From an uncultured Puniceicoccaceae bacterium (lineage in GTDB: Bacteria > Verrucomicrobiota > Verrucomicrobiia > Opitutales > Coraliomargaritaceae): a stretch of 48,176 nt of DNA. Positions 3-45,509 of the stretch are shown here, one piece after another. Where the stretch lies: positions 1 to 48,176 of the forward strand of contig CAJWRZ010000001.1 of assembly GCA_913045955.1 (NCBI GenBank), read 5' to 3'. The notes beneath the pieces are model-generated. The model saw only the letters and a program-made list of their open reading frames with translations. It had not been told where the DNA came from and did no database searches. A program made the translations under genes and the position numbers. Position 1 is the first letter of the stretch. Every line of letters begins with the position of its first letter.

Positions 3-572
3 ATGGAAGCGGGCGCGGAGAAGAAGTTTTATCGCTTTAAAATGTCTGACGACTCTGATGGAGATGGAATTCTTGATAAGGATGAACAGGGCTATCCTAC
101 AAGCTTAGAATCGGGAGTTTCATTGGATTTACGAATTATTACTGGTTCTTTTTCATGGAATAGTGCAAAGTTGGACGCAGAAACAAGAGGCGGTAGGCTA
201 GCAGTACTAGATAATGCTTCTAAAATAGAATATTTTCATCAATTTTTACAGTCACAAGGTGGATGGCCAAATTTATATTTAGGAGCATCTGATTCAGAAA
301 ACGAAGGTGATTGGAAGTGGTTAAATGGAAGTAGCGTAATAGCTAATAATTGGGGTCCTGGTGAGCCTAATGATAAGAATGATGAAGATGCAGTTGCCGT
401 AAGCGGTGGAATCTTTTTGTGGAATGATGTAAAAGATGACGTATTATTTTCAGGCTTTGGGTATGTTTTGGAACTACCTATTAATATTACAGATCCTAAT
501 AACCCAGATACCGAAGGCGATGGCTTAAATGACGCGGATATTAGTGAGTCTGGTTTGAATTATATACCTTAG
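3..572 (+). CDS. C-type lectin-like domain protein with thrombospondin type-3-like Ca-binding repeats (likely 5'-partial; the ORF is open to the window edge)
   Basis: CTLD landmarks YLGASD / EGDWKWLNGS / NWGPGEPND / EDAV / WNDV. DxDxDG-type repeats DSDGDGILDKDE and DTEGDGLNDAD. No cysteine in the 189 aa. Confidence 0.6.
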   Translation: MEAGAEKKFYRFKMSDDSDGDGILDKDEQGYPTSLESGVSLDLRIITGSFSWNSAKLDAETRGGRLAVLDNASKIEYFHQFLQSQGGWPNLYLGASDSENEGDWKWLNGSSVIANNWGPGEPNDKNDEDAVAVSGGIFLWNDVKDDVLFSGFGYVLELPINITDPNNPDTEGDGLNDADISESGLNYIP

Positions 573-600: not shown

Positions 601-2460
601 TTAATGAATTACATTAGGTTCTCCGGTGCAAAGTCCTCTGTGGTCGAATGTTTTCTTTATCATTTCAATAGACAACCAATTTTTGTACCCTTTAAAACCT
701 TTGCTCTTGTATTGATTACCTTCCTTAGTGAATTTGACATATCCAAGAGTTTTGTAACCTAAAACAGTATTTTTTATCGAATCTAAATCTAGAGCAATAT
801 CTTTATTATTAGTTCTATTTGAGATCGTTAGTACTTTGTTATTAATCGTATATTTCAAATCAATATTCTTCCTTAAATTATCTTTGTAGATTGCTTTTTT
901 AAATAATTCTAAGATCTCCTCTTCTAAGACTTTTTCATTAATATAAGAAGCATAGTATATAAGATAATAGTGATATTCTATGTTTAGGCTATTGGCCAAG
1001 CTGGCTTCTTTTATTATTTTATAAGCTGCATTAGGCTCGCCTTGTCTGAATTTGTAGCTAGCTAGAATACTATTAGCTTTTTTATAATTAGGATGGATTG
1101 AATCTAAGGTCTCTTTTGTTCTGTAGAAATCTTCTTTAGCGTTTAGATTATTATGCAGTAATTTTAATTTTACGTAATAGAAATAAGGCTCATGGCTATT
1201 GAGATTAATTGCCGCATTAATATTTTTTATGTTCGGAGACCTCAAATTTTCGAAAGCTCTAAATTTACTGGAAGTAGCAATTAATAATGTAGGTATTAAG
1301 ATCAGATAAAATAGGAACGTAATTCTGTTTATTGATTTGCTGCTTATAGTATTGATTGCCTTAAAGCCGTAGGACAGTGCAAATAATGGAAGTATGGAAT
1401 ACAGGACGCCATTTCTATACGAGGAATAAATTTGTATAGTGATTAGGAAGACAATTATGAATAATGCTTTTTCCCTTAATCTATTTCCTTCTTTTATATT
1501 CCTATAAAAAAAATAGAAAAAGCTTATTAAGATTACGAGTAGCCATAAAATCCCACCTTCAATCAGTGATTCTATTAATTCATTATGAACATGCTTAAGC
1601 CTAGTAATATCAATAAAGGGGAATTTCCCCTTGGTGTTTGTGTTGTCAGCAATAATTTCAGCTGACCCAAACCCATTTCCGATAATCTTATTATTGGTAG
1701 TCCAAAAATAGTCATTAAAAAATTCACAAGTAGCAACTCGACTACCGTATGATTTGCCTAGAGCTTCCTTTAGGTGATTTAAATCTGATATGTTTATAAA
1801 AAAAGGCGCTAAAGCAAGACTACTGAAGATTATAGACAAATAAATTTTCCTATAGTTTTTCTTTTTAAGAAAAAGAAATGGAATAATTATAGAATATAAG
1901 ATTAAACAACCTTTATTCGATAGTAATACTAGTATTAGACAAACAATTGAGTGGTTTATTATAAATTCGAATCGGCTACGGCTTTGTATCTTAATTCCAA
2001 GAAACAAAGTTATCAGTGCTACGATATTTGTGTTCGACAAATTTAAGTGATTTTGACCTGAAGGTGTATCTGAAAAATATCCAAATAGTAGTATTACAAA
2101 AAATGTATATAGTATCAGTTTAACGTACCCTTCTTTAATTGATAGGCCCTTAAGTAAGTAGAAAGGGGCAGTTAATAGAATTATCCAATTAAGGAGATTA
2201 TAGTTCAATAAACTGTCATTTAAGAAAAAGTAATGAAGTGATACTATTAACAGGGATCCAACAATAAGTATGTGTTGTTCAACCGAACTTTCAGGGATCT
2301 CTCTTCTTACAATATAGTCGACCAACTTAATTGATAGGAAGGCATAAAGGCTCAAAATTACTCCTATTTCTGGATTTACTGATAAGGCACCAGAAACAAG
2401 TAGAATAGGAAGCCAATAAGTTTCAAAAAGCTTATTTATGATTACAAGCAATGTTTTCAA
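601..2460 (-). CDS. O-antigen ligase/polymerase-family (Wzy_C-like) polytopic membrane protein with C-terminal TPR-like region
   Basis: Many hydrophobic segments over the first ~400 aa. Wzy_C-type signature HVHNELIESLIEGGILW. The C-terminal ~200 aa is soluble and looks like a helical repeat. The gene is visibly more AT-rich than its neighbours. Confidence 0.6.
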   Translation of the reverse strand: MKTLLVIINKLFETYWLPILLVSGALSVNPEIGVILSLYAFLSIKLVDYIVRREIPESSVEQHILIVGSLLIVSLHYFFLNDSLLNYNLLNWIILLTAPFYLLKGLSIKEGYVKLILYTFFVILLFGYFSDTPSGQNHLNLSNTNIVALITLFLGIKIQSRSRFEFIINHSIVCLILVLLSNKGCLILYSIIIPFLFLKKKNYRKIYLSIIFSSLALAPFFINISDLNHLKEALGKSYGSRVATCEFFNDYFWTTNNKIIGNGFGSAEIIADNTNTKGKFPFIDITRLKHVHNELIESLIEGGILWLLVILISFFYFFYRNIKEGNRLREKALFIIVFLITIQIYSSYRNGVLYSILPLFALSYGFKAINTISSKSINRITFLFYLILIPTLLIATSSKFRAFENLRSPNIKNINAAINLNSHEPYFYYVKLKLLHNNLNAKEDFYRTKETLDSIHPNYKKANSILASYKFRQGEPNAAYKIIKEASLANSLNIEYHYYLIYYASYINEKVLEEEILELFKKAIYKDNLRKNIDLKYTINNKVLTISNRTNNKDIALDLDSIKNTVLGYKTLGYVKFTKEGNQYKSKGFKGYKNWLSIEMIKKTFDHRGLCTGEPNVIH

Positions 2461-2468
2461 AGAGATCT

Positions 2469-3845
2469 TTAGATTTTTTTAATTCGCATTTTCTTGAAGC
2501 GATTTGAGAAATTAGTCGCCTCTTTAAAATGCAATCTGGCGGGGACTTTATAAGTTGATAGTTTTTCGCGGCAGAAGTTCTTAATCGCGCGCTTCATTGG
2601 TTTTGAGTCTATCCCTTCCTTCAATACAATTTCGGCTGCGACAATTTGCCCAGTCAGTGCATTTGTTTCTGGATAGACTAGGCAATCGGCAATCTCAGGC
2701 ATCTCAAGTAGGGTACTTTCAACTTCAGAGGGGGTGACTTTCTCGCCGCCAACATTGATTATCTCTTGTTTGCGACCGACTATTCTGAAAAATCCTTCGC
2801 CTTCTTTTTCATTGGCGGGCTCAAGTAGATCGCCTGTCTTGAACCAGCCGTCTTCTGTAAATCGAGACATTTCATGATTCAGGTAGCCTAATATTTGACT
2901 TTTTGAACGTAGCCATAGCTCGCCCTCAACAATTTTATATTCGGTATTAGGGTCATCGAATTTAATTAAGGTACTCGAAGAAGATCGGCTAATGGTTTGG
3001 CTAATACCCGTCTCACTGGTGCCAAAGGTTTGGATCAAGGCCGTGTCGGGGAAAGCTGCTTTGATTCGATTAAGTAAGCTCTCGGGCATCGGCTCAGTCC
3101 CGTATGTTATATAGCGTAAACTCGATAAATCGTACTGCTCAGCTACGCTACTGATCAGGAATAAATTTAAAAAAGTAGGGGATGCCGGTAGGAGTTTTAC
3201 TGAGTATTGCTCAATGGCTCGAGCGACATTCTCGGGCTTTCGATCTTGTGGAACGACGATGCGTGCCCCGGTTGAGAGCCCATTAAATAAGGTATTGATG
3301 CCCCCTACATGATCGAAAAGTAAGAATATTAAAATCGATAATTTTTTGGTTCTCTTCCCCTTAAAAGGCTCCAGTAAACGCTCCGCTGAATGGATCATTG
3401 CTTTGGGCTTCCCGGTGCTCCCACTACTGAAGAGTATTAGACCTGCTTGCTCTGCTTGAATTAACTCCTTTATATAGCTGTGGACTTCGTTTTGTCCTTC
3501 AAGCATTTTGACCTCAGGTTTCTTCGACTTTTCTGTGTGAATTTCCCAGCGTGCATTTGAAGCTTCGATTCGTTGTTGGCGTTCGCTTTTTGCATCAATA
3601 GCTGCCGGTGCTACCATAGCTTTTATTTCAAATAAAGCCAGTAAGCTAGCAATCGCTTCAAGTGTATAATCACCGTGTAGGAGGACGACATCACCCGCTT
3701 GAATCCCTTGAGCTTTAAAATATTTTATTTGCGTGGTGATGGATTCGGAGAGCGCATCATAGCTGTAGGTCACATCGGGCTGAGCTAAGAAGGGACGATC
3801 TTCGAAGTTCGCAATACGATCAATCAGCCAAGATGAAGAGTTCAC
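2469..3845 (-). CDS. AMP-dependent synthetase/ligase (adenylate-forming enzyme, DltA/acyl-CoA-synthetase superfamily)
   Basis: Core motifs FSSGSTGKPKAMIHS, YGTEPMP, WFKTGDL, GRKQEIINVGGEKVTPSEVE. 458 aa. Confidence 0.85.
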   Translation of the reverse strand: MNSSSWLIDRIANFEDRPFLAQPDVTYSYDALSESITTQIKYFKAQGIQAGDVVLLHGDYTLEAIASLLALFEIKAMVAPAAIDAKSERQQRIEASNARWEIHTEKSKKPEVKMLEGQNEVHSYIKELIQAEQAGLILFSSGSTGKPKAMIHSAERLLEPFKGKRTKKLSILIFLLFDHVGGINTLFNGLSTGARIVVPQDRKPENVARAIEQYSVKLLPASPTFLNLFLISSVAEQYDLSSLRYITYGTEPMPESLLNRIKAAFPDTALIQTFGTSETGISQTISRSSSSTLIKFDDPNTEYKIVEGELWLRSKSQILGYLNHEMSRFTEDGWFKTGDLLEPANEKEGEGFFRIVGRKQEIINVGGEKVTPSEVESTLLEMPEIADCLVYPETNALTGQIVAAEIVLKEGIDSKPMKRAIKNFCREKLSTYKVPARLHFKEATNFSNRFKKMRIKKI

Positions 3846-3867
3846 AGAGAAGAAGTTACAGCTTTTA

Positions 3868-4566
3868 TTAGTTAACGCCTCCGAGATAGAGAATTTGCCC
3901 GGTTATAAAATCACTTTCAGGTTTCAATAAGAAATCGACGCAATTGAGGATGTCTTCTTGGGTGCCTAATCGCTTGATGGGTTGTTGCTCAAGGAGGGCG
4001 TCAATTTTTTCTTTGGGGACGAGCTTTATTAAATCAGTTTCAACCGGAGTCGGTCCGATTGCATTGACCGTGATATCCATACTCGCGAGTTCTTTAGCCG
4101 CAGTTTTTGTCAGAGACTCTACCGCCGACTTACTGGCAGCATAGAGGGCTTCTCCCTCTAGGTTAAGGGGACTAGCGATACTAGAGAAATTTATAATACG
4201 TCCACCGCCATTTCGGCTCATTTGCTTAGCGGTTTCTCTAAGAACTAAAAAGGTGCCGAGTACGTTTGTTTTAAAAATCTTTTCATAGGACTCCACTGGA
4301 GTGAGCAAGATATGATTCATTGAGGCAACGCCCGCATTATTGATCAAAGCGCGTATTGGCCCATGCAGCTTCTTTATGGTTTTTATGGTTTCAATAACCG
4401 CTGCCTCATCAGCCACATCAATTTCAAAATGATGATAATTCTCATGCACTAGGTCAGTGCTTCTTCGGCTGCAACCTCCCACAATCCAGCCTTGAGAAAG
4501 TAGGTGCTCGGCGATTGCTCTTCCAATGCCTTTTCTTGTTCCGGTTATGAAGGCTACTTGACTCAT
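3868..4566 (-). CDS. Short-chain dehydrogenase/reductase, FabG-like (3-oxoacyl-carrier-protein reductase type)
   Basis: TGTRKGIGRAIA cofactor motif, NNAG, catalytic YAASKSAVE. 232 aa. Its start overlaps the upstream carrier-protein gene by 4 nt. Confidence 0.85.
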   Translation of the reverse strand: MSQVAFITGTRKGIGRAIAEHLLSQGWIVGGCSRRSTDLVHENYHHFEIDVADEAAVIETIKTIKKLHGPIRALINNAGVASMNHILLTPVESYEKIFKTNVLGTFLVLRETAKQMSRNGGGRIINFSSIASPLNLEGEALYAASKSAVESLTKTAAKELASMDITVNAIGPTPVETDLIKLVPKEKIDALLEQQPIKRLGTQEDILNCVDFLLKPESDFITGQILYLGGVN

Positions 4567-4892
4567 GATGGGTTCTGGGCATCAGCGGCTTCGATTAGCT
4601 CCATTATGTAATTCACACAAGAGCCCACTTTCCTGAAGGGTGAGTGTGTCCGGCTCATGGCACTTTGACTGGCTAAAGTTATATGGATATCATGCTCGTC
4701 AGAGAGCTGCTCTTCAATATCCGTGATTAGGTTGACTAAGCCCATGCTGTCTAAGGCACTTCTTGAGCCAAAAAGTCTAGTTTGCTCATCAGTAGCGGAT
4801 AATTCTTTTATTTCTAGGTCTTCGCCAAGTTCTCTAAGGATCGTTTGGACGAGTTCTAGGACAGTATTTCTCTCTAATGGCATATCATTCAC
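4563..4892 (-). CDS. Acyl/aminoacyl carrier protein (phosphopantetheine attachment site)
   Basis: LDSMGLVNLITDIEEQL matches the DS(L/M/F)G Ser-attachment helix of ACP/DltC-type carriers. It lies between the sugar transferase and the SDR. An alternative start at ATG 4883 would remove the 8-nt overlap. Confidence 0.65.
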   Translation of the reverse strand: MNDMPLERNTVLELVQTILRELGEDLEIKELSATDEQTRLFGSRSALDSMGLVNLITDIEEQLSDEHDIHITLASQSAMSRTHSPFRKVGSCVNYIMELIEAADAQNPS

Positions 4893-5460
4893 CTAAAAAT
4901 TCACTTCTAGTCGCTTGGTCTTCTTCGTTTATATTTTTTCTTTTAAGTACGACTCCTATTGTCAATAAAAGTATCTTAAGGTCGAGCATTATTGAAGCAT
5001 TCTCAACGTACCAACAATCTAAGCGAAACTGTTCTGCCCAAGAGATGTTGTTGCGACCATTCACTTGAGCCCAACCGCTGATTCCTGGAAGTACTTGGTG
5101 CCGTTTACTTTGTTCATCCGAGTAGCGGTCTTTGTAGGCTTCCGGTAAAGGGCGCGGGCCGACCAAACTCATGTTTCCAATCAGAACATTCCAGAGTTCG
5201 GGCAATTCATCTAAACTTGTCGATCTAAGCAATTTCCCCCAAGAGCTGAGTCGCTCCTCATCAGGACCCGAGCCTTCTTTCATGGTTCGAAACTTAATGA
5301 TCTTAAAGGTTTTACCATTAAGGCCCAAACGTTTTTGTGTGAAGAAAATAGGGCTCCCTAAAACTATTTTTTGTATAATACATAGAAAAATCATTGGTAA
5401 CAAGAAAAGTACCAATAATACTGAAGATAGAAGCAAATCTAAGATCCGTTTTTTTATCAC
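4885..5460 (-). CDS. Small monotopic phosphoglycosyl transferase (bacterial sugar transferase, PglC/WbaP C-terminal type)
   Basis: DELPELWNVLIGNMSLVGPRP and PGISGWAQVNGR motifs. One N-terminal hydrophobic helix. GTG start at 5460. Confidence 0.85.
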   Translation of the reverse strand: MIKKRILDLLLSSVLLVLFLLPMIFLCIIQKIVLGSPIFFTQKRLGLNGKTFKIIKFRTMKEGSGPDEERLSSWGKLLRSTSLDELPELWNVLIGNMSLVGPRPLPEAYKDRYSDEQSKRHQVLPGISGWAQVNGRNNISWAEQFRLDCWYVENASIMLDLKILLLTIGVVLKRKNINEEDQATRSEFLGE

Positions 5461-5539
5461 AAATAACTATTAAAATTATTAAAAAAATAGTCAAACTTCC
5501 CGTTGACACAAAATAACTTCGCTATTTATTCCTAAAAAT
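5461..5539. promoter_or_regulatory. Divergent promoter region with back-to-back -35-like boxes
   Basis: Plus strand: TTGACA at 5503-5508, a 16-nt spacer, TTTATT at 5525-5530, and ATG at 5540, which implies a very short or absent leader. Minus strand: TTGACT (complement of 5489-5494) with only weak -10 candidates before the GTG at 5460. Confidence 0.3.
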
Positions 5540-6706
5540 ATGATTACTGATGCCTCTAAAAGATCCTTTGAACCCTTTTCTTTAACTCGTCTCCTAAAAA
5601 CATCTTTCGGTGGCGGCAATGGAGAGCGCGTCTGCGTATTGATCGATTTGCCCAACCCTGCGGATATCAAAAACTTCGCATTTTTGAAGGATGAATCCTT
5701 ATCCATTCAAAATTACGGTTATGAAGTATTTTATAAAGGATTCCAAGCAGGCGCACTTGAAGTAATGAATTGGAAAGGTGGAGAACTTTTTGCCTACAAA
5801 GAGACTGGTGGCAGTAATTTAGATATGGAAGATATATGTTTTGATCCCGAAGGTCATGAACTGAGCCTCGACCATGATATATATTCTAAATATGACATTA
5901 TTTTGGTCGTATCCACTTTCTCAGCTACCGCTCCTTTAACTGCAAAATGTAAGGAATTTGGGTTTAGAGGTGCGACGCTTCATGGTCTTAACCAAATAAT
6001 CTTAGATACGGGATTAGCGGTTGATTATGTTTCAGTCAGTGATGATTCAGAGAAAATGCGCTTGGCGCTGACTCAAGCCGATTATTTTGAAGTAGATTTT
6101 GAAGTTGAAGGCTCCACTTACACTTTAAAGTTAACGACCAATGGACAAGAAGCGCAAAAAAGCCACGGCTTGTGCCTCCCGGGTAACCCAGATGTTGCCA
6201 ATTTACCGGCTGGCGAAGTTTATTTTGTGCCAGAAAGTGTGGATGGTGTATTTCCATTTAAATATGCCGAAGAAACTATCGGGTTATTGCACGTTAAAGA
6301 AGGTAAGATTTTTAAATCTCAATTTGTTTATGGGGATTACTCATTAATTAAGGATCACAATGAACGTTTGGAAGAAGATCCTATGATCGGAGTGATTGGA
6401 GAGCTTGGTTTTGGCACGCAAGTACTGCCATTTTCTGGTCGAGATATTCAAGATGAGAAGATCTTGGGCACCGTCCATATTGCCACAGGAAGAGACGATC
6501 ATTTAGGAGGACACATCACTCCAGATTTATTTAAAGAGCATAAAAATGCTTCACATGATGATGTTTTGTACGCTCCACATAAGACACCGGAGATTCGCTT
6601 GCCCGAAGTTAGAATGATAAAAGACGGTAAAACAGAAGTGCTCATCAGGAAATATAAGCCTTCATCCTTTGTTATCGATACCATAGAATCCAAGCAATTG
6701 GTTTAG
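5540..6706 (+). CDS. M29 (aminopeptidase T/PepS)-like metalloprotein, function uncertain
   Basis: The segments ANLPAGEVYFVPE, IGELGFGTQ, DEKILGTVHIATG and SHDDV resemble conserved M29 metal-site blocks. The N-terminal ~200 aa are not recognisable. Confidence 0.45.
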   Translation: MITDASKRSFEPFSLTRLLKTSFGGGNGERVCVLIDLPNPADIKNFAFLKDESLSIQNYGYEVFYKGFQAGALEVMNWKGGELFAYKETGGSNLDMEDICFDPEGHELSLDHDIYSKYDIILVVSTFSATAPLTAKCKEFGFRGATLHGLNQIILDTGLAVDYVSVSDDSEKMRLALTQADYFEVDFEVEGSTYTLKLTTNGQEAQKSHGLCLPGNPDVANLPAGEVYFVPESVDGVFPFKYAEETIGLLHVKEGKIFKSQFVYGDYSLIKDHNERLEEDPMIGVIGELGFGTQVLPFSGRDIQDEKILGTVHIATGRDDHLGGHITPDLFKEHKNASHDDVLYAPHKTPEIRLPEVRMIKDGKTEVLIRKYKPSSFVIDTIESKQLV

Positions 6707-6735
6707 TTCTTATACCAAACCAATAAAAATATTTT

Positions 6736-7485
6736 ATGGGAGATACTTATGAATCCGAAGCGCTCCTGAATCAGTATTTGCTCTTTCATTATGGCACCGC
6801 CAAAGATCAGTTCCCTTATGATTTTAACATTTCAGAAGCTTTCGACTTTCCCGTTCGTTGTGCTCAAGAAGGTATTAACTTAGGAGCTTTAAACGAAACT
6901 GGGCGTGCTTTAGATCTTGGCTGCTCAGTAGGGCGATCTACTTTTGAATTAGCAAAGTCTTTTGATTCAGTAACCGGTATTGATTATTCGAGCTCATTTA
7001 TTCAGGCAGCCCAAAAGCTTAAATCTAAAGGCAGTCACGCAGTCAATTATCTAGAAGAGGGTACGCAGTTTAATCAAAGTGAAGTCTTTGTGGATTCGGA
7101 TATAATCCGTGAGCGTGTTTCTTTTGAATGTGGCGATGCCCAGAACTTAAGGTCAGACTTAGGCAGTTTTGATTTTGTCCTAGCCTGTAATCTTATATGT
7201 CGACTTCCCAGTCCGATGGCGCTCCTAGATCGATTACCGACCTTGGTTCGGCCGAAGGGGCAATTATTTATTACAACACCTTTTACTTGGCTTGAGGAAT
7301 ATACCCCGAGAGAAAATTGGCTAGGTTCTGGAGGAGAAGATTCTTTTAGCGGACTTCAAAATGCCTTAGGCAAACATTTTAAACTTTTAAAGCATTGGGA
7401 CATGCCTTTTTTAATCCGAGAGCATTCAAGGAAGTTTCAATTCAGCATCGCTCAAGCCAGTCGTTGGGTTCGAGTTGAAGATTAG
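6736..7485 (+). CDS. Class I SAM-dependent methyltransferase; resembles the OvoA C-terminal / putative 4-mercaptohistidine N1-methyltransferase family
   Basis: SAM motif I is LDLGCSVGRSTFELA, and there is an acidic post-I D in GIDYS. The N-terminal YESEALLNQYLLFHYG block is as I recall it for the ovoA_Cterm family. The subfamily call is from memory only. Confidence 0.7.
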   Translation: MGDTYESEALLNQYLLFHYGTAKDQFPYDFNISEAFDFPVRCAQEGINLGALNETGRALDLGCSVGRSTFELAKSFDSVTGIDYSSSFIQAAQKLKSKGSHAVNYLEEGTQFNQSEVFVDSDIIRERVSFECGDAQNLRSDLGSFDFVLACNLICRLPSPMALLDRLPTLVRPKGQLFITTPFTWLEEYTPRENWLGSGGEDSFSGLQNALGKHFKLLKHWDMPFLIREHSRKFQFSIAQASRWVRVED

Positions 7486-7486
7486 A

Positions 7487-8182
7487 CTAGCAGTCGCTGT
7501 ATTTTAAGAACTGCTCTGAAGCTTCAATTTGAGTCTTTAATTGCTCGGCAATCTTTAATTCGAGGTCATCGGGATGAATTGAAATCCTCAAAGGTAGCTT
7601 AGATTTTCTTGCTTTAAATTCCTGGAATCGGTTCCAATAGCTTAAGAAAAAAGCTCTAAAATTGGTATCGGCTTCATAACCGGTTAGGGGCAGTGCGACG
7701 AATCTAGTTTGGGCATCTGAGTTCAGTTGGATCACGCCCAGGGTCGTTTCAATTTGTTGATAGGGTGCTTCCTTAAGTTCTTTTTTTCGAATAGGTCCTA
7801 AAGCCCAAGCAGGTGGTACGTAGAGGTCGGGTGAGGGTAAGTTATGTTCTAGAAACCAAGCTTTTGAGCGTTGGATTAATTTTAGGATTTCTGTGCTCGA
7901 TAAGTCCAAGTGCTCTGCTACATCCCTTGAGAGAATAAATGAGTGCAGCCGATGATAGATGCGCCTTGGTCGTGTCTTATGGTGCCATCCGTGCGCCGCT
8001 AATGTGTAACCTTTTTTAGATAATGAATCGAGTTGCCTAATTTGAGCTTCGGTCCAGTCCTTGCCCGGAACTACAAGAAGGGTACTCGGTGGAACCTTAA
8101 GTGCTTCTAGCCATTCAATAAGCTTAAGCACTCGATCCATTGTTTCAGGCATGACGTCATGAATAGAAATGATCGATTTCAT
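7487..8182 (-). CDS. DUF2334-type predicted polysaccharide deacetylase-fold protein
   Basis: N-terminal SIHDVMPET and HGWHH motifs are typical of DUF2334. 231 aa. It is the last gene of the gtrA-sulfotransferase-GT4 operon. Confidence 0.5.
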   Translation of the reverse strand: MKSIISIHDVMPETMDRVLKLIEWLEALKVPPSTLLVVPGKDWTEAQIRQLDSLSKKGYTLAAHGWHHKTRPRRIYHRLHSFILSRDVAEHLDLSSTEILKLIQRSKAWFLEHNLPSPDLYVPPAWALGPIRKKELKEAPYQQIETTLGVIQLNSDAQTRFVALPLTGYEADTNFRAFFLSYWNRFQEFKARKSKLPLRISIHPDDLELKIAEQLKTQIEASEQFLKYSDC

Positions 8183-8200
8183 CTTTATTTCTCCAAAGGC

Positions 8201-9292
8201 TTAAAGTTTATTTAAAAGCGCCATCCAATGCTCTAAGGTCATCGTGTTAAATTGGATTGCAGCAGCTCTAGAGCGTGCTCCTAAAGAAGCTCTTTCCTCC
8301 GAGGTCATATCAATAAGCGATTGAATTGCTCGTATGAGATTCCTTTCATCTTTTAAGACGACAATATTCTCTCTTAAGGAATCCCACTGATTGATTCCTG
8401 AGTTTTCTGAAACGATAGTGGGTCGACCCCGAGCCATTGCTTCATAGGCGACTGAACCGAAAGTCTCTAATTTAGAGGGGAGGAGTAAACAATTAGAAGC
8501 ATCAATTATTTTAACTAACTCGCTTCGATTCACCCAGCCCGTAAAACGCACATTTGTCAGTTCAGTCGAGGATTCTTTAAGTGAACGCTTCAATGGACCA
8601 TCGCCTACAATAATGAATCTTATCTGCTTAAAGTGTTTCGCTGCATCAAGGATTAAGTCTATGTTTTTCTCTGCAGCCAAACGCCCCGCAAAGCAAACTT
8701 GCTCAAAAGCTTTAGGAGCATTATTAAGAGGCTCGCTGAAATGAAAATCAGGCAGTGGCGTTCCCATTACTTTATGTTTTTGGGCACCTAGTTGCTCAAC
8801 TTGAGGAATGAGCTTTTTGTTGTTGATGAGCGTATATTCGCTATGGCTACAAAAGAGTTTATTGATGAAGCTTAAGTAGAAATTAGCGAAAGACCGGTTC
8901 AAAGGATTCCAATAGATTTTGGTTAGCTGCTCAAAATCCGTATGAAAAGCACTGACAAATTTTAAGTTATTTCGCTTGGCATAAAGGTATCCGAGGATGC
9001 CAAAAGGCCCCGGGGTTATCGATATTACAATCTGAGGTTTTAGCTGTTTTAAACCTCTGTAGATTCTAAATAAGTTTGGCGTGATCAGTCTTTGTGAAGG
9101 GTCGCCGGGCATCGGTATCGAGAGCCAGTTCAATCGCACCTGTCTCCTTGGCTGGAAAATCGCCATGGATAGAGGGAAGGCAGATAGTTGCTTCAGAAGG
9201 TCAAAATAATAAGCCCCTGTCCCGTTTCTTTCAGGCAATGAATCGGAGAAGAAAGCAATCCTTGGTTTTTTGTGATGGGTGGGTGAAGTCAT
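8201..9292 (-). CDS. Glycosyltransferase family 4 (GT-B, retaining)
   Basis: The C-terminal block LPSKLETFGSVAYEAMARGRPTIVSENSG carries the E-x7-E region. 363 aa. Its start overlaps the sulfotransferase stop by 4 nt. Confidence 0.85.
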   Translation of the reverse strand: MTSPTHHKKPRIAFFSDSLPERNGTGAYYFDLLKQLSAFPLSMAIFQPRRQVRLNWLSIPMPGDPSQRLITPNLFRIYRGLKQLKPQIVISITPGPFGILGYLYAKRNNLKFVSAFHTDFEQLTKIYWNPLNRSFANFYLSFINKLFCSHSEYTLINNKKLIPQVEQLGAQKHKVMGTPLPDFHFSEPLNNAPKAFEQVCFAGRLAAEKNIDLILDAAKHFKQIRFIIVGDGPLKRSLKESSTELTNVRFTGWVNRSELVKIIDASNCLLLPSKLETFGSVAYEAMARGRPTIVSENSGINQWDSLRENIVVLKDERNLIRAIQSLIDMTSEERASLGARSRAAAIQFNTMTLEHWMALLNKL

Positions 9293-10434
9293 GATCCAAT
9301 CGAATCTTTTAGGATTAGCTGATAATTTTCAAATACAGAACCTGCAATTATGTCATTATTTACAGCAAAGTTATCATGTTGATGCTTACTTTTAGTATGA
9401 ATGGGTAGGGGTTCTTCACTTGTTCCTAAGCTTTGAATATCTAAATCCAATAATTCCATTGCTTCATTCAATGTGCTGTGGGGTTGATGTAGGAGTCTCT
9501 GCTGATCAATGATAACCCTTTGTTTAGGATCGGTGTTTTGGGTGAAGCTATAAATACTTTGAAAAGCATACTCCATCGACTCGAGTATAATTTTTTGGGT
9601 AGTGGCACCAGAGGGGTCAGTTCCAAAAACACTGCGCGCCGGTTTGAGTGAACTGAGCTGAGAACTCAGCGCACTCTTTGGCTCACGGATAGACAGTAAA
9701 AATTTTGCCTTAGGGAAAGCCTTTTTAATCTCGGGTAGCCAAGTTGAAAAAGCAGCATTTTTAGATAAAAAACAAGTATCAAGGCCGTGGAAATATAAGT
9801 GCCTTTGTATGTTTTCTTTGTAGAAGCCAATAATAGCTGTGCGCTCTTCCTGCGTAAAATTATCAAGTGAGGTGAGCTTTCTAAGTCCTTGGGATTTTGG
9901 GAAGGCAAAGAGCAATATAAAACAGGCTCCGATAGGTAAAAGTGTGAGGTAATCTTCTTCGGGCTCGTTCATCGCCACGCTGTGAATGTCATGGAAATTC
10001 CCTCCAATTTTTTTGATAGAAAAGTTTAAAGTCTTTTGAAAGGGACTTCCAAGGCACCCATCTAATTCAGATAGGAGGCGAAGGCATTTCTTTTGAAAAA
10101 TTGAGGGCGCAAGGATTGCCTCCCAGGTCGAAAAGGTCGTACACGCCATAGATTTTGAGAGGGTACGATGAATGTAAGTCGTTCCACTTCTTGGAATCCC
10201 GATTACAAATAGTGCCTTATCGCATGATTGTTGCTTAAATTTTCTGTAGAGAAGGTGATCAAGAAGGAAGCCAAGGCAATGGATGAGCTGGAGTACTGCG
10301 AAAGCCGGAAAGATAAAGACTAAGAATAAAACTCTATTCAGGCTGAACGGTCTTTGCTTTTTGCTGTTAAAACAGAAGGCTTCTAGGTAAGCAGGGAGGA
10401 ATAGCTTTAAGCTCCTTAATAAAAGAAATTGCAT
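9289..10434 (-). CDS. Membrane-anchored PAPS-dependent sulfotransferase
   Basis: The 5'-PSB loop is IGIPRSGTTYIHRTL and the 3'-PB-like block is SIREPKSALSSQ. One N-terminal hydrophobic helix (FLVFIFPAFAVLQLIHCLGFLL). Confidence 0.7.
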   Translation of the reverse strand: MQFLLLRSLKLFLPAYLEAFCFNSKKQRPFSLNRVLFLVFIFPAFAVLQLIHCLGFLLDHLLYRKFKQQSCDKALFVIGIPRSGTTYIHRTLSKSMACTTFSTWEAILAPSIFQKKCLRLLSELDGCLGSPFQKTLNFSIKKIGGNFHDIHSVAMNEPEEDYLTLLPIGACFILLFAFPKSQGLRKLTSLDNFTQEERTAIIGFYKENIQRHLYFHGLDTCFLSKNAAFSTWLPEIKKAFPKAKFLLSIREPKSALSSQLSSLKPARSVFGTDPSGATTQKIILESMEYAFQSIYSFTQNTDPKQRVIIDQQRLLHQPHSTLNEAMELLDLDIQSLGTSEEPLPIHTKSKHQHDNFAVNNDIIAGSVFENYQLILKDSIGS

Positions 10435-10437
10435 CGA

Positions 10438-10887
10438 TTATTTATTATCAAAAACAATTTTCTTTGAAAAGAAAAAGTTAAAGGACAACCCGGCAATGCC
10501 TCCAACCCATACGGCAATTAAGGGCATCAGTTCTTTGAGGGCTCCCTCTAGATTAAAGTTATTGGCTAATGAAATTGTGGTTAAAAATATGCCAATATTA
10601 AGGAAACTTCCAAGTCCATGAACCCCAAAGTGACGCATGACGGACGCCCATAAAGCACGGTTTACTTCAATATGATGAAAGGTGAAGTAGCGGTTCAGGG
10701 AATAACCTAAGAGCATTGATGAGGAAAGGGAGATTAATCGGCTTATCAAAGTATTAAGCCCGAGTTCCATCAGTAAATATAAAATAACTATATCAATCAG
10801 TGATCCCATTAAGCCTACGCCCGCAAACCTTAAAAACGTCGCGGTATCACTCGGGCTTTTTTGGAATTTTTGAAATAATTTTAGCAT
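10438..10887 (-). CDS. GtrA-family small membrane protein (polyprenyl-phosphate-sugar handling family)
   Basis: 149 aa with four hydrophobic segments. The N-terminal FLRFAGVGLMGSLIDIVILYLLM is typical of the GtrA family. Confidence 0.7.
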   Translation of the reverse strand: MLKLFQKFQKSPSDTATFLRFAGVGLMGSLIDIVILYLLMELGLNTLISRLISLSSSMLLGYSLNRYFTFHHIEVNRALWASVMRHFGVHGLGSFLNIGIFLTTISLANNFNLEGALKELMPLIAVWVGGIAGLSFNFFFSKKIVFDNK

Positions 10888-10911
10888 CCAGAAGTCGTCC
10901 TTTTGGGCAGA

Positions 10912-11481
10912 TTAGCTCCCGGGTTTTGTCGCTGTAATCTTTTCTAGGGCTGCCGGAAGGTTTTCTGGATCATAGGTTGGGAAATTAAGATTAGCTAAGC
11001 TATGATGGGGTATTTCAAAACTGGTACTGCCGTTGCTACGATCGACAATTACGCCAACGGCTACTGGATTAGCGCCCTGTGCTTTTAATTCCTTAATTGC
11101 TTCAAAGACTCTGCCTCCTTTTGTAATGACATCTTCAATAATTAATACTTTTTCATCGGGCTTAAACTTGAAGTTTCTTCTAAGTGCTAGCTGATCATTG
11201 ACTTTTTCGAGGAATACATAGCGTAAATCCATTTGCCGAGCGACCTCTTGCCCGATTACTAGTCCTCCCATGGCATTACCTACAACGGTGGTAGCCCCAT
11301 ATGATTTTAAGCTTCCTACGAGAATCTCTGCTAAACGAGTGACCTTATCTAAGTATTGGCATACCTGAGCGCACTGAAAAAAGTGTCCGCTTCGTAATCC
11401 AGAACGAAGGATAAAGTGACCTTCTAAGAGGGCGCCACTGTCTTTGAAGATTTCAATGATTTCAGTATCTAATTTAGACAT
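10912..11481 (-). CDS. pyrE: Orotate phosphoribosyltransferase
   Basis: GHFILRSGLRSGHFF N-terminal block and the PRPP-binding loop VLIIEDVITKGG. 189 aa. Confidence 0.85.
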   Translation of the reverse strand: MSKLDTEIIEIFKDSGALLEGHFILRSGLRSGHFFQCAQVCQYLDKVTRLAEILVGSLKSYGATTVVGNAMGGLVIGQEVARQMDLRYVFLEKVNDQLALRRNFKFKPDEKVLIIEDVITKGGRVFEAIKELKAQGANPVAVGVIVDRSNGSTSFEIPHHSLANLNFPTYDPENLPAALEKITATKPGS

Positions 11482-20933: not shown

Positions 20934-21371
20934 CTAAAGGATACTGGATAAATAGCGTAGCGCTGCACGATACCCTTCAAACCCTAAGCCTGAGATCACC
21001 CCTAGACATACCGGAGCAGATATTGAGTGCTGGCGTATGGCTTCCCTTTTGTAAATATTGCTTATGTGTACTTCGACGGTGGGCAGGTTAGCTCCAGCAA
21101 TAGAATCTTTAAGGGCTAAACTGGTATGGGTTAAAGCACCCGGGTTTAGGATAATTCCATGAACTGAGCCATCGGTCAGTGTGTTATTAATTGTGTCGAT
21201 AATAACACCCTCGTGATTTGATTGGTGGAACTGTAGACTTATTCCGAGAGCTTCAGCTTCTTTATTAAGAAGTGCCTCAAGGTCAGCTAAGGTCTGGTCT
21301 CCATAAATAGTAGGTTCACGTTCACCTAGACGATCAAGGTTTGGGCCATTAATAATTGCGATTTTTTTCAT
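20934..21371 (-). CDS. aroQ: Type II 3-dehydroquinate dehydratase
   Basis: IINGPNLDRLGEREPTIYG, HQSNHEG, ILNPGALTHTS. Confidence 0.9.
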   Translation of the reverse strand: MKKIAIINGPNLDRLGEREPTIYGDQTLADLEALLNKEAEALGISLQFHQSNHEGVIIDTINNTLTDGSVHGIILNPGALTHTSLALKDSIAGANLPTVEVHISNIYKREAIRQHSISAPVCLGVISGLGFEGYRAALRYLSSIL

Positions 21372-25298: not shown

Positions 25299-25370
25299 TA
25301 GAAAGCTTTCAGGTTTTAATATAAATAATTGTAATTGATTTAATACGCTTTACTATAAAGATTTTTAAAA

Positions 25371-28109
25371 ATGAGCGACAAATTTAAAAGATTTGATGAT
25401 GAACATAGTCGTTCTCGGCATTCGCGCAATAGGCGTTTTATAGGATCTAATAAGAAAAACTCCAAGAAGTACTCTTCGGAAGTAGAAAGGCGCAGAGGCC
25501 GTATTGAAGCGGGGAAGCTTAGGACGAGTCGTAAAAATAATTCGATAGCCAAAACTAAAGACTCCAAGGCTGTTTCCTCAGAAATGGAGTTGATCAATAA
25601 AAAAAGGTTAGAGCGTAAACGTTTGGGGCTAAAGATTCGGCATGAATCAGCTCTTAAAACCTCTAAAAAGTCAGGTAATAATACCAGGGCCACCTCACCA
25701 AAAACTTCCTCTAGGGGTAATGTTTTACACACCAAAAGAAGCCCCATGCCAGCAGAATGCGTAGGTTATGGTAGCGCTTTCGTGGTCGCTTTGTTGCTGC
25801 TGTTTGTAGGTGCTACGGACTCAGTGATGAGCGATGGTATATTGCTTATTTTTATTGGATTTATGCTCTATAGAGTTCCTGAGCTTTATTCAAAAGGTTG
25901 GCACATTGATATTTGTGTTATAGCGTTTCTTCTCCTTTGTTTGACTTCTTTTACTCCCGCGTTAACTGAATTTTACTCTAATTGGAGGGGGTTAGCAGCG
26001 GATGAACATGGGCTATACTTTGGTTTTTTCCACTCGCTTAGACCTTTGCTTGGATTAGAGGGACTACTTCTCTTTTGCGCGCTTATTGCTTTTTATTACA
26101 ATATGGGTGCCTGGAAAGTGAATAGCTATGGTAAGGATAGATTATTTTTTATTACATCATTAATATCGTTTATTCTTATTTTTTCGGACTTTTATTTTGG
26201 TGCAAATCCTCTCAAAATATTTTTATCTGAGGTTAAACATTTCAGCCCGATAGAACATTATCGGGAGAATTTTGCTTTATTTCTTTTTATTTTGGGCATC
26301 AGTTCACTGGGTTTCTGTATTAACGGATTTAAGTATAAAATATTTGGCGCATTCGTAGGGCTTCTCGCTTCAGTTTTCTGCTATTTGTTTTTATTAAAAT
26401 CAAATGCAGTCTTATACGGTAACCTCTATCTAGGATTTAGTTTCCTCGCACTTTTTGTTTGGTTTAAAAAACAGCATTCTAGGACAGTTGGGCTTAGGTT
26501 TGCTTGGATTTCAGGCTCAGGTTTAATTTCTATTATACTGCTCAATTGGCCCTCATTTTTTTACTACTTAAAGGGCTCTTGCCAATTATTCCTGAACCAA
26601 TTTAAAGCACTTTACCTAGCATTGATGGGTGTTTTAAAAAACAGCGCCTTTCTTGGTTTTGGATTGGGCTCTTCTAAAGGATTAATGCCCCAGTTTAATT
26701 CTGATTATAACTTTGAAAGTGGTTTCGCCTCAAGAGGAACAGACCTAATGAGTTGGGTGGTTGATTTCGGGTTATTGGGAATGGTAATCCTAATTTTATT
26801 CCTTGGACAATGGGCTATAAAAAACATCCCCAATAAAGGCGGCTTTGAAAATCGGCATAAGCCTTTTTACTTAATCATACTCTTCGTTTTTGCCCTTAGA
26901 TTTATAAGTGATTCGAGCTCGACTGGGGTTGCTTTGATCCTACTTTTGTTGCTTTTTTTCCAACTTGCTTCCAGTCGGCACAAGCGCAGGAAGCAATTAA
27001 TGCCCCGTCTGCTTTGCCGTATTTTGGGCATATTTTGGATCGTGGTTGGATCCTTCTGGCTATTCTCAACTATTTTCAATTGGCCATTTCACAGTGATAT
27101 CCGCAGTAGAATTGCCTTAGGAGAACATCGAAATTACTTAGATTCATTTGAATACGAATATGAACTTAGACTAGATCCAAAATTAGATCCAAAATTAGAT
27201 CTTAATAGCACCGTACAAAAGGCATCTTTAATCCCATCATTGCATCCGGCAAAGCCTTTCTCAAAAGCGCGTAAGCTAATCAGTGAAGGGGGCGATCCGG
27301 ACTTGGTTGCTAAGGCGATTGAGCAAGGACGCTTCTTGGATCCAAATAATGAACGCCTAGCTCTAAATATAGGCTACTGGACTTTGGAATCAAATCCTTC
27401 TTATGCTTTGGAATCATTCGATCGATATTTTCGAATAGAGCCTCGTAGAAAACTAAATCAGTATAAGGCATTGCTGCATTACCTGTTAAGGTGCTCCGAA
27501 GCTCAATTTCAAGAATTAGAGACGCTTTCTAATTTTAACGAAGAATATAGAGTTCATTATTTGTTGCTACTGAAAGATCAAACTAGTGACAGGCTCCGCC
27601 CCGAATCGTTTGAAGGATTCTCGCTTTTAAATCAGGATTTGAAATATAAATTTCTAGAGCACTTACTTAAGAGGGGCCATTTTGAAATATTTGATGCATA
27701 CGTGATGCTTTATTTGGGTCAATTGGAGGACCTATCAATTTTAAAAGCAATTAAAGCTAAAGAGTTAGCTGATTTTGAGGGCGCTCTATCGATGATTAGG
27801 GCAACTATCGATCCTCCCCAAATCCCACTTTCTGAAGCTCAGAAGAACTCTAGAGAGTCGCACCATTATAGAGTGTTTATCGAGAATAATCCTGACTTAA
27901 GTATGGGAATTTCTTTATTAGTTAATGCCCTAGATTCTAATAAATATCTAGAAGCTGGAGGAATCCTTAAGCATCTTTTACGCTTAGAAAAGCCTCCTTT
28001 ATTTGTTTATTATTGGTATGCAGAAGTGCTTTACATACTTAAAGATTACGAAGAGAGTTGGTTTGCATTCGAATCTTATATACAAAAATCAAAAATTCGG
28101 CTTCAATAA
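25371..28109 (+). CDS. Polytopic membrane protein, divergent Wzy_C/O-antigen-ligase-like, with a polybasic N-terminal extension and a C-terminal TPR-like region
   Basis: About 125 aa of K/R/S-rich N-terminus, then more than 10 hydrophobic segments. There is a degenerate Wzy_C-like block SRGTDLMSWVVDFGLLG, and the C-terminal ~330 aa is soluble and helical-repeat-like. An alternative start is ATG 25746. Confidence 0.5.
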   Translation: MSDKFKRFDDEHSRSRHSRNRRFIGSNKKNSKKYSSEVERRRGRIEAGKLRTSRKNNSIAKTKDSKAVSSEMELINKKRLERKRLGLKIRHESALKTSKKSGNNTRATSPKTSSRGNVLHTKRSPMPAECVGYGSAFVVALLLLFVGATDSVMSDGILLIFIGFMLYRVPELYSKGWHIDICVIAFLLLCLTSFTPALTEFYSNWRGLAADEHGLYFGFFHSLRPLLGLEGLLLFCALIAFYYNMGAWKVNSYGKDRLFFITSLISFILIFSDFYFGANPLKIFLSEVKHFSPIEHYRENFALFLFILGISSLGFCINGFKYKIFGAFVGLLASVFCYLFLLKSNAVLYGNLYLGFSFLALFVWFKKQHSRTVGLRFAWISGSGLISIILLNWPSFFYYLKGSCQLFLNQFKALYLALMGVLKNSAFLGFGLGSSKGLMPQFNSDYNFESGFASRGTDLMSWVVDFGLLGMVILILFLGQWAIKNIPNKGGFENRHKPFYLIILFVFALRFISDSSSTGVALILLLLLFFQLASSRHKRRKQLMPRLLCRILGIFWIVVGSFWLFSTIFNWPFHSDIRSRIALGEHRNYLDSFEYEYELRLDPKLDPKLDLNSTVQKASLIPSLHPAKPFSKARKLISEGGDPDLVAKAIEQGRFLDPNNERLALNIGYWTLESNPSYALESFDRYFRIEPRRKLNQYKALLHYLLRCSEAQFQELETLSNFNEEYRVHYLLLLKDQTSDRLRPESFEGFSLLNQDLKYKFLEHLLKRGHFEIFDAYVMLYLGQLEDLSILKAIKAKELADFEGALSMIRATIDPPQIPLSEAQKNSRESHHYRVFIENNPDLSMGISLLVNALDSNKYLEAGGILKHLLRLEKPPLFVYYWYAEVLYILKDYEESWFAFESYIQKSKIRLQ
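27172..27201 (+). repeat. In-frame 12-nt tandem repeat (tagatccaaaat x2.5) encoding LDPKLDPKLD
   Basis: Direct reading of the sequence. It lies at the junction between the membrane and TPR-like regions. Confidence 0.9.
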
Positions 28110-44963: not shown

Positions 44964-45509
44964 TTAAATAAGGCCCAAAATCATTTTACCTTCCTCGGTG
45001 ATCATCTCTTGATCCCACGGGGGATCCCATACAATGGCAACTTCCGCTTGCTTAACACCAGGTATAGTCTCTAGGTGTGTTTGTGCATCTTCTGCGATCG
45101 CAGGCCCCATTCCACAGCCAGGGGCTGTAAGCGTCATTTCCATAACGACTTTATATGTGCCATCCATAGCTTCATTCAACTCAAGTGAGTAGACTAAGCC
45201 TAAGTCGACAATATTAACGGGTATTTCTGGATCAAAAACTTTTTTAAGAACCTTCCATAACGCATCCATATCGGGCGGTCCTTGATGTTCCTTTACATTC
45301 ACCTTTTCATTCACGGTCACGACTTCACCAATTGCATCGGCATCTTTACCTTTAATTCGGAACATGCCATTTTCGGTCATGACTGTGAAATTACCACCGA
45401 GCCGGTGTGTGATGACGATGGATTCACCTTCGGCAAGTTCCATTGCAGTCCCTTGGGGAATTAACGTAGCTTCAACGGCCCGACTGAGTATTCTTTTATC
45501 TTCGTTCAT
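44964..45509 (-). CDS. sufT: SUF-system Fe-S assembly protein SufT (long form, C-terminal DUF59)
   Basis: [17 protein letters not shown] and [14 protein letters not shown]59 blocks. 181 aa. It lies 6 nt downstream of sufD. Confidence 0.75.

Follow-up and report, generated by a model that had tools for sequence, protein, structure and literature searches.

A marine Opitutales locus read as three neighboring gene modules, one of them a widely conserved sulfotransferase cassette that most likely makes a sulfated amino-sugar lipid

Here, we describe a cluster of 11 open reading frames (ORFs) from an uncultured marine bacterium of the order Opitutales (Verrucomicrobiota). The cluster occupies positions 601–10887 of a 48-kb stretch of DNA, which we refer to as “the window.” The nearest named homologues of the window proteins belong to Puniceicoccaceae, Coraliomargarita, and Lentimonas, and window genes are also present on TARA Oceans scaffolds. 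The ORFs are arranged as two minus-strand operons, operon 1 (5460 to 601) and operon 2 (10887 to 7487), flanking a plus-strand gene pair (5540–7485; Table 1). Both operons are tightly packed. In operon 2, a GtrA-family gene and a sulfotransferase (ST) gene are 3 bp apart, the ST and glycosyltransferase (GT4) genes overlap by 4 bp, and 18 bp separate the GT4 gene from a DUF2334 gene. In operon 1, the genes for a phosphoglycosyl transferase (PGT) and a carrier protein overlap by 8 bp, and those for the carrier protein and a short-chain dehydrogenase/reductase (SDR) by 4 bp; gaps of 22 and 8 bp, respectively, separate the SDR gene from an AMP ligase gene, and the latter from a Wzy_C-like gene. 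The ORFs, their strands, and their close spacing are as described in the original prediction, which went on to assign both operons and the plus-strand pair to a single system that decorates one glycoconjugate. On balance, we favor a different reading, in which three independent modules have been juxtaposed by synteny: operon 2 (module B), which probably builds a sulfated amino-sugar lipid; operon 1 (module A), a PglC-type PGT with an acyl module; and the plus-strand pair (module C), which is separate from both.

Table 1. Features of the locus, in window coordinates
Feature	Coordinates	Strand	Basis or remark
Polytopic membrane protein with a weak Wzy_C signature and a 220-residue soluble tail	601..2460	-	Wzy_C 21.4 bits (gathering 31.7)
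ANL-family adenylating enzyme (AMP ligase), 458 amino acids (aa)	2469..3845	-	AMP-binding (130 bits) and AMP-binding_C
FabG-like SDR, 232 aa	3868..4566	-	adh_short 153–162 bits (adh_short_C2 162)
Dedicated carrier protein (acyl carrier protein [ACP]-like), ~106–109 aa	4563..4892	-	PP-binding 13.6 bits, E 0.08
PglC-type small monotopic PGT, 191 aa	4885..5460	-	Bac_transf 201 bits
Intergenic divergent region	5461..5539	.	79 bp, AT-rich, between the PGT and M29-like genes
M29-like protein, 388 aa	5540..6706	+	8 of 28 distant relatives match Peptidase_M29
OvoA-C-terminal-type methyltransferase	6736..7485	+	TIGR04345 208 bits (cut-off 170); Methyltransf domains
DUF2334 (COG3233-type) deacetylase, 231 aa, no N-terminal hydrophobic segment	7487..8182	-	Pfam DUF2334 56.7 bits (vs 26)
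GT4 retaining glycosyltransferase, 363 aa; predicted N-acetylhexosamine (HexNAc) transferase to a membrane acceptor	8201..9292	-	Pfam Glycos_transf_1 93.5 bits
3'-phosphoadenosine 5'-phosphosulfate (PAPS)-dependent ST, 381 aa, N-terminal hydrophobic helix at residues ~32–62	9289..10434	-	Pfam Sulfotransfer_3 63.9 bits
GtrA-family small membrane protein, 149 aa; putative translocase	10438..10887	-	Pfam GtrA_DPMS_TM 61 bits

Most family assignments in the original prediction hold: Bac_transf, AMP-binding, adh_short, Methyltransf, DUF2334, GT4, Sulfotransfer_3, and GtrA all score above their Pfam gathering thresholds, whereas Wzy_C falls below its own. Among the products of operon 2, the ST exceeds its threshold (27 bits) by a wide margin. 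In alignments of the family, one of them of 28 homologues, its 5'-phosphosulfate-binding (5'-PSB) loop, GIPRSGTT, and the 3'-phosphate-binding (3'-PB) residues R250 and S258 are invariant or ≥95% conserved. Its AlphaFold2 (AF2) model has a predicted local distance difference test score (pLDDT) of 84, and the best Foldseek matches to the structure are mycobacterial Stf9 (E 9e-9) and Stf1 (E 3e-8), with template modeling (TM) scores of 0.59–0.67. In Pfam score, loop residues, and fold alike, the protein has the properties of an Stf1/Stf9-like PAPS-dependent sulfotransferase. Within its N-terminal hydrophobic helix, R34, Q49, and D59 are invariant across phyla, and H52 is found in most sequences; these polar residues hint that the helix, beyond anchoring the enzyme, helps to bind a membrane-embedded acceptor.

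The GT4 enzyme of operon 2 has an EX7E motif (E276–E284) that is conserved in 66 sequences. Its second-best NCBIfam match is GpgS, the N-acetylglucosamine (GlcNAc)-phosphatidylglycerol (PG) synthase (NF053787; 51.4 bits against a cut-off of 480), and GpgS is also among the top three matches of three homologous proteins, from Halomonas, Coraliomargarita, and a spirochaete (37–44 bits). For the DUF2334 protein, the sole NCBIfam match is GpgD, the GlcNAc-PG deacetylase (NF053788), to which it aligns almost end to end with 60.4 bits against a cut-off of 280; GpgD is likewise the sole named NCBIfam relative of other deacetylases of the family, from Opitutales, Halomonas, and a spirochaete (40–65 bits). 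H8, D9, H64, H68, and other His, Asp, and Glu residues of the DUF2334 protein are ≥95% conserved in 55 sequences. Searches against PDB sequences returned generic GT4 matches only for the GT4 enzyme, and no match for the DUF2334 protein. Hydrophobic segments and an N-terminal signal-like sequence were not seen in the translations of either the GT4 enzyme or the deacetylase, and PAPS, the sulfate donor, is cytoplasmic. The GtrA protein has 25 positions that are ≥95% conserved in the family alignment.

The genes of operon 2 travel together. In a scan that covered one genome per GTDB species, 275 species genomes encode a relative of the ST. Our counts of related loci rest on the best 80 of these 275 loci, each with 10-kb flanks, with which the window proteins were compared by tblastn. 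Verrucomicrobiota contribute 48 of the 80 loci and Gammaproteobacteria/Pseudomonadota 29; the remainder come from two spirochaetes and one alphaproteobacterium. The hosts are Opitutales, halophilic and marine Gammaproteobacteria (including Halomonas, Aidingimonas, Aquisalimonas, Arhodomonas, Thioalkalivibrio, Porticoccus, Congregibacter, and Algiphilus), the two spirochaetes, and the alphaproteobacterium, a distribution that is wide and ecologically coherent (marine and hypersaline). In every locus with room for all three genes (70/70), the ST, GT4, and DUF2334 genes are colinear, in that order and on one strand. A GtrA gene lies directly upstream of the ST gene in 57 of the 75 loci with room for it; GtrA is present in the Verrucomicrobiota loci examined and in about half of those from Gammaproteobacteria. 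Across Opitutales, the cassette genes are ~40–60% identical. Clustering of 1,282 neighboring ORFs, together with an inspection of same-strand neighbors within 120 bp, revealed no further conserved partner (PAPS synthesis, lipid genes, a GT-C enzyme, or exporters) beyond lineage synteny. The ST-GT4-DUF2334 set, with or without GtrA, makes up a self-contained cassette of wide conservation, with at least 70 genomes of several phyla having it; its family memberships, its catalytic and cofactor motifs, its strict colinearity, and its independence from neighboring genes are all directly observed.

Two further observations concern the boundaries of the cassette genes. In seven loci, most of them gammaproteobacterial (L042, L044, L050, L064, L071, L074, and L080; ~9440–11180 in most), GtrA and ST appeared to be fused in ORFs of ~550–600 aa. 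We rejected these candidates, since the N-terminal extension is unlike GtrA in that frame; the ORFs are spurious upstream extensions, and the true GtrA gene that they overlap is read in another frame. ST starts may be over-extended in automated annotations of those seven genomes. Upstream of the cassette in the window, pyrE (10912–11481, same strand; TIGR01367 passed with 179 bits) ends 24 bp before GtrA, and it is placed likewise in six related loci. In this clade, the cassette may be co-transcribed with pyrE, with transcription possibly starting further upstream.

Operon 2 most resembles the aminoglycolipid operons gpgSDF and hexSDF with a sulfotransferase added. In Pseudomonas aeruginosa, gpgSDF encodes a GT4 enzyme, a COG3233 deacetylase, and a flippase-like protein that together make glucosaminyl-PG (Khan, Palmer and Guan 2025, PMC12713373). 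In Clostridioides difficile, hexSDF makes aminohexosyl-hexosyl-diradylglycerol (PMC10128005). Both lipids were demonstrated with mutants and by expression in E. coli (PMC12713373, PMC10128005). Like gpgSDF, operon 2 is a short operon with a cytoplasmic GT4, a cytoplasmic COG3233/DUF2334 deacetylase, and a small membrane protein of the kind proposed to be a flippase. There are several differences. The membrane protein of the cassette belongs to the GtrA family rather than being UPF0104/MprF-like, and the cassette has no LPG_synthase_TM protein; a membrane-anchored PAPS sulfotransferase is inserted, strictly conserved and never missing; and the gene order (flippase-ST-GT-deacetylase) is unlike that of gpgSDF. 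Because the equivalog cut-offs are not reached and the flippase family differs, the cassette is not a member of gpgSDF. With hexSDF, the cassette shares a predicted logic of three steps, in which a membrane lipid receives a HexNAc, the N-acetyl group is removed, and the product is putatively flipped. However, HexS is annotated as an MGDG (monogalactosyldiacylglycerol)-synthase-type enzyme, HexD as a polysaccharide deacetylase, and HexF as MprF-like, with no sulfation; the Hex enzymes are analogous rather than homologous to those of the cassette, apart from the general deacetylase superfamily.

The sulfation step has parallels of its own. The mycobacterial enzymes Stf1 (2ZQ5) and Stf9 (2Z6V) share the Sulfotransfer_3 fold and the PAPS loop with the cassette ST at 14–16% identity, but they are not encoded beside a GT4-deacetylase pair, as the cassette ST is. 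Among other mycobacterial sulfotransferases, Stf0 acts on trehalose and Stf3 on menaquinone. Rv1373 is described as a glycolipid sulfotransferase (PMC13141999). In animals, the heparan sulfate N-deacetylase/N-sulfotransferase (NDST) couples de-N-acetylation of GlcNAc to PAPS-dependent sulfation. The likeness between NDST and the cassette is one of logic: the relation within the ST superfamily is remote (matches to 3-O-sulfotransferase [3-OST] at E ~1e-3), homology of the deacetylases was not seen, and the substrate of NDST is a polymer, whereas that of the cassette would be a lipid-linked monosaccharide, which may be N-sulfated. In full-text literature, we found no description of an ST coupled to a GT4-DUF2334 pair (or to GtrA), nor of a bacterial sulfated glucosaminyl lipid. 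The original prediction could name no described pathway for the whole gene set, and we found none for operon 2.

The product of the cassette is most likely a sulfated glucosaminyl (amino-sugar) membrane lipid. Since the cassette occurs in many contexts without a PGT, a polymerase, a GT-C enzyme, or an exporter, its acceptor must be a molecule that every host has. In the mechanism that we propose, synthesis would take place at the cytoplasmic face of the inner membrane. The GT4 enzyme would transfer a HexNAc, probably GlcNAc from UDP-GlcNAc, to a common membrane lipid such as PG or diacylglycerol; the DUF2334 enzyme would then remove the N-acetyl group; the membrane-anchored PAPS sulfotransferase would sulfate the sugar, either at the freed amine or at a hydroxyl; and GtrA would move the product to the outer leaflet. 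A more specific version, which we put forward tentatively and regard as possible rather than probable, is that the lipid is N-sulfated, making the cassette a lipid-level counterpart of the animal N-deacetylase/N-sulfotransferase step; the product would be anionic, possibly phosphorus-sparing, and shared by marine and hypersaline bacteria of several phyla. If the general proposal is correct, hundreds of marine and halophilic species, among them abundant ocean Opitutales and the genetically tractable Halomonas, share an unrecognized class of sulfated amino-sugar envelope lipid for which three or four genes suffice. A lipid of this kind would matter for the charge of the membrane, for adaptation to salt, for resistance against cationic compounds, and possibly for the economy of phosphorus in seawater, and a large branch within both Sulfotransfer_3 and DUF2334 would gain its first function.

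Operon 1 has a different composition. It begins with a PGT that aligns with the solved PglC structure 8g1n over residues 4–190 (175 bits, E 9e-51); the protein has the features of a PglC-type enzyme, and its translation shows LDELPE and GPRP motifs. The small protein encoded next had been predicted to be a carrier protein. The evidence for this call is weak or indirect and consists of the PP-binding score of just 13.6 bits, a serine (Ser49) in an LDS(M/L) motif that is invariant across 8 homologues, and weak profile matches to ACP and D-alanyl carrier protein (DltC) structures (E 0.005–0.5). The carrier protein gene directly precedes the SDR gene in four of four unrelated loci. The SDR scores 176 bits against TIGR01830 (3-oxoacyl-ACP reductase), below the cut-off of 298, and has orthologues with 52–56% identity in loci from Hippea, Vibrio, and a spirochaete. 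Full-length orthologues of the AMP ligase, 51% identical, are found in Hippea maritima, Vibrio breoganii, and a spirochaete, each time with a ~100-aa carrier-like protein and a 233-aa SDR encoded directly upstream; the best solved relative of the AMP ligase is MenE (94 bits).

The carrier protein, SDR, and AMP ligase genes (the ACP-SDR-AMP trio) thus occur in the same order, with 40–56% identity per gene, in loci of very different content. In Hippea maritima (L085, 8467–11341), the trio lies within a flagellin/NeuB nonulosonate locus with DegT, PIG-L, and GNAT genes. In Vibrio breoganii (L086, 9000–11350), it belongs to a locus for capsule or O-antigen that also has PglD-like, DegT, and PglF-like genes and a PGT that is 55% identical to that of the window. 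In the spirochaete (L088, 9009–11353), it adjoins a DegT gene and a left-handed β-helix (LbH) acyltransferase gene in a GT2/LPG_synthase_TM/YfhO locus. An aminotransferase and an acyltransferase (LbH or GNAT) are encoded beside the trio in all three outside loci; neither is present in the window or in the Opitutales relatives examined, so these partners must be encoded elsewhere in Opitutales. The Vibrio breoganii locus, a PglC-initiated, bacillosamine-type system with N-acyl decoration, is a close parallel: its PGT, ACP-like protein, SDR, and AMP ligase are 51–56% identical to those of operon 1, and it additionally has PglD-like, DegT/PglE-like, and PglF-like genes, FabH-ACP-FabG, and glycosyltransferases, whereas the Opitutales unit consists of the four genes only, alone between housekeeping and variable genes. 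There is also a likeness to the Dlt system (DltA-DltC-DltB-DltD), in which an adenylating enzyme loads a small dedicated carrier for decoration of a cell-envelope polymer. Unlike Dlt, operon 1 includes an SDR, its AMP ligase is nearest to MenE-like and fatty-acid ligases rather than to DltA, and neither an MBOAT protein (DltB) nor DltD was found among the window proteins scanned. A full-text literature search aimed at the trio returned no functional description of it.

The trio is a mobile acyl-decoration module. Judging from its context, its most probable task is to make a short, reduced (hydroxy-) acyl group, attached to a dedicated carrier, with which an amino sugar is then N-acylated. In this scheme, a short acid would be loaded onto the carrier protein and then reduced; in the other bacteria, the trio adjoins enzymes that would N-acylate a 4-amino-6-deoxy or nonulosonate sugar. 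The original prediction noted that nothing at the locus could unload the carrier protein, and this is borne out.

The last gene of operon 1 differs from those that precede it. The original prediction described its product as a Wzy_C/TPR (tetratricopeptide repeat) membrane protein that provides a ligase- or polymerase-like step. The protein has at least eight hydrophobic segments in residues 1–400 and scores 20.9 bits against TIGR04370, but no TPR family matches its C-terminal 220 residues at E ≤10; the sole signal there is ANAPC3 (14–16 bits). The gene has a GC content of 30%, compared with 40% for the window, and a TTG start codon. It has no homologue in any of the 80 related loci, and its exact product has no match in the gene catalogue. 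What follows the AMP ligase gene varies by locus, with toxin-antitoxin genes in one related genome (L087) and unrelated ORFs in others. The Wzy_C-like gene does not belong to the conserved genes of module A and looks like a recent acquisition at a variable spot. Of the gene set required for a Wzy-dependent O-antigen or exopolysaccharide (EPS) cluster, only the PGT is solid among the scanned window genes.

The plus-strand pair is a separate functional unit rather than a pair of glycan genes, because a natural fusion of the two proteins exists. This 650-aa fusion (P0362) consists of one half that is ~50% identical to the 388-aa protein and another that is 41% identical to the window methyltransferase (E 1e-66), and it suggests a two-enzyme pathway that is as yet uncharacterized. 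The 388-aa protein is 77–100% identical across Opitutales, far more conserved than its neighbors. Its M29-like label, given in the original prediction, fares unevenly. The window protein has no Pfam match, PF02073 included, even at E ≤10; among its distant relatives from 1.84 billion searched representatives, however, 8 of 28 match PF02073 in Pfam scans (best E 1e-10), and some sources name its homologues “aminopeptidase.” A profile of the distant relatives had no match among PDB sequences, and the AF2 model is poor (pLDDT 49, from a shallow alignment), with NicX as the sole Foldseek match (E 4e-5, TM just 0.25). By transitive homology, “M29-like” would be a fair label. The region upstream of this gene had been described as a back-to-back promoter region; it amounts to a short divergent gap, and promoter-like sites in the region are not above chance (22 found vs 27.4 expected). 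Scans for sigma-70 promoters and terminators at the operon boundaries likewise gave nothing above shuffled expectation.

How far, then, do these modules belong together? It is unlikely, in our estimate, that the two operons cooperate with the plus-strand pair and the Wzy_C-like gene to build one undecaprenyl diphosphate (Und-PP)-linked glycan that is de-N-acetylated, sulfated, acylated, and then ligated or polymerized. Such a pathway would account for the adjacency and tight packing of all the genes in the window, an arrangement that recurs in 8 related Puniceicoccaceae/Coraliomargaritaceae loci, and its chemistry is conceivable, in that the free amine left by DUF2334 could take an acyl group and the GT4 enzyme could extend a lipid carrier supplied by the PGT. 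Across related genomes, however, co-occurrence of the parts largely fails. Of the 51 loci that extend at least 8.5 kb downstream, 7 have the PGT-ACP-SDR-AMP genes close by, and all 7 are close relatives; at least 44 loci whose flanks are long enough, other phyla included, have module B but not module A. In Coraliomargarita akajimensis, operon 2 is found at the syntenic site (with lptF/G, pyrE, folate genes, and the convergent methyltransferase), an RND (resistance-nodulation-division) efflux system replaces operon 1, and no protein from this species is among the 120 best AMP-ligase matches (down to 51% identity). The converse is seen in the complete genome of Coraliomargarita sp. W4R53, where the M29-like gene is divergent from PGT-ACP-SDR-AMP and no operon-2 gene lies within 10 kb. 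Further, module A orthologues are found in quite different glycan loci, the Wzy_C-like gene is missing from every relative, the intervening pair is a separate, fused unit, and the window has neither an acyltransferase nor Wzx. Operon 2 abuts the methyltransferase gene and operon 1 abuts the M29-like gene; because each operon is next to one member of this conserved pair, the two give the impression of one unit in this clade. That glycan-type genes are neighbors in a single genome is, in this case, no evidence that they form one pathway, and a composite glycan is possible only as a clade-specific add-on.

Within the three-module reading, several points weigh against a sulfated glucosaminyl lipid as the product of module B, and against a strict separation of the modules. 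The product is a prediction, and we infer the donor, the acceptor, the position of the sulfate, the flipping, and the chemistry of each step. With 51 bits against an equivalog cut-off of 480, and 60 bits against one of 280, the GT4 and DUF2334 proteins, respectively, are distant relatives of GpgS and GpgD, and their acceptor could differ; the GT4 is equally similar to polysaccharide and teichuronic-acid transferases, and the GtrA family is best known for polyprenyl-phosphate sugars rather than glycerolipids. The adjacency of modules A and B could still be exploited functionally in this clade, and the window has no acyltransferase to take up the acyl-carrier intermediate of module A. Finally, nearly all cassette hosts belong to diderm lineages, which is compatible with modification of the inner core of lipopolysaccharide (LPS). 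The latter is the main rival, although we give it only limited probability: the GT4 enzyme would add GlcNAc to lipid A-core, the DUF2334 enzyme would deacetylate it, and the ST would sulfate the core sugar before export by MsbA. There is precedent for the first two steps in Klebsiella, where WabH and WabN add GlcNAc to the core and then deacetylate it. LPS-core transferases are among the members of the GT4 family, about half of the gammaproteobacterial loci do without GtrA, and in Opitutales the cassette is two genes away from lptF/G. This last link, however, reflects lineage synteny alone and disappears in Gammaproteobacteria. A substrate flipped by MsbA would leave GtrA nothing to do, but the examined Verrucomicrobiota loci have a GtrA gene; the cassette is not accompanied by other genes of core biosynthesis; and a phospholipid is the substrate of the sole named relatives of the deacetylase. 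A soluble sulfated glucosaminide, whether a compatible solute or a thiol-cofactor-like metabolite made by the logic of MshA/MshB or BshA/BshB, would fit the weak matches of the GT4 to BshA (41 bits) and MshA (33 bits) and the marine or halophilic hosts, and sulfated osmolytes exist in haloalkaliphiles. We consider it quite improbable because of the membrane features of the cassette proteins: the ST has a conserved hydrophobic N-terminal helix, and the first operon gene in most loci encodes the membrane protein GtrA. Moreover, the deacetylase is of the DUF2334 rather than the PIG-L type used in thiol pathways, and no ligase or acceptor-synthesis gene is associated.

The absences listed in the original prediction hold: no Wzx, ABC exporter, Wzz/Wza, nucleotide-sugar, or acyltransferase gene is present among the scanned genes of the 48-kb window, a scan that left out short ORFs such as 20934–21371 and 44964–45509. 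The remaining scanned genes are housekeeping genes, i.e., pyrE, lptF/G, folate genes, helicases, gpsA, hisG, addAB, lysS, and sufBD. Amid these housekeeping genes, a plus-strand ORF of 912 aa (25371–28109) has no Pfam match at E ≤1e-4, and a 135-aa ORF on the opposite strand (25340–25747) overlaps its start. C-type lectin domains are uncommon in bacteria; one (Pfam Lectin_C, E 2e-7) is encoded by a plus-strand ORF that runs into the left edge of the window (3–572), where it is flanked by Asp-rich repeats of the DxDxDG type, similar to calcium-binding thrombospondin-type-3 motifs.

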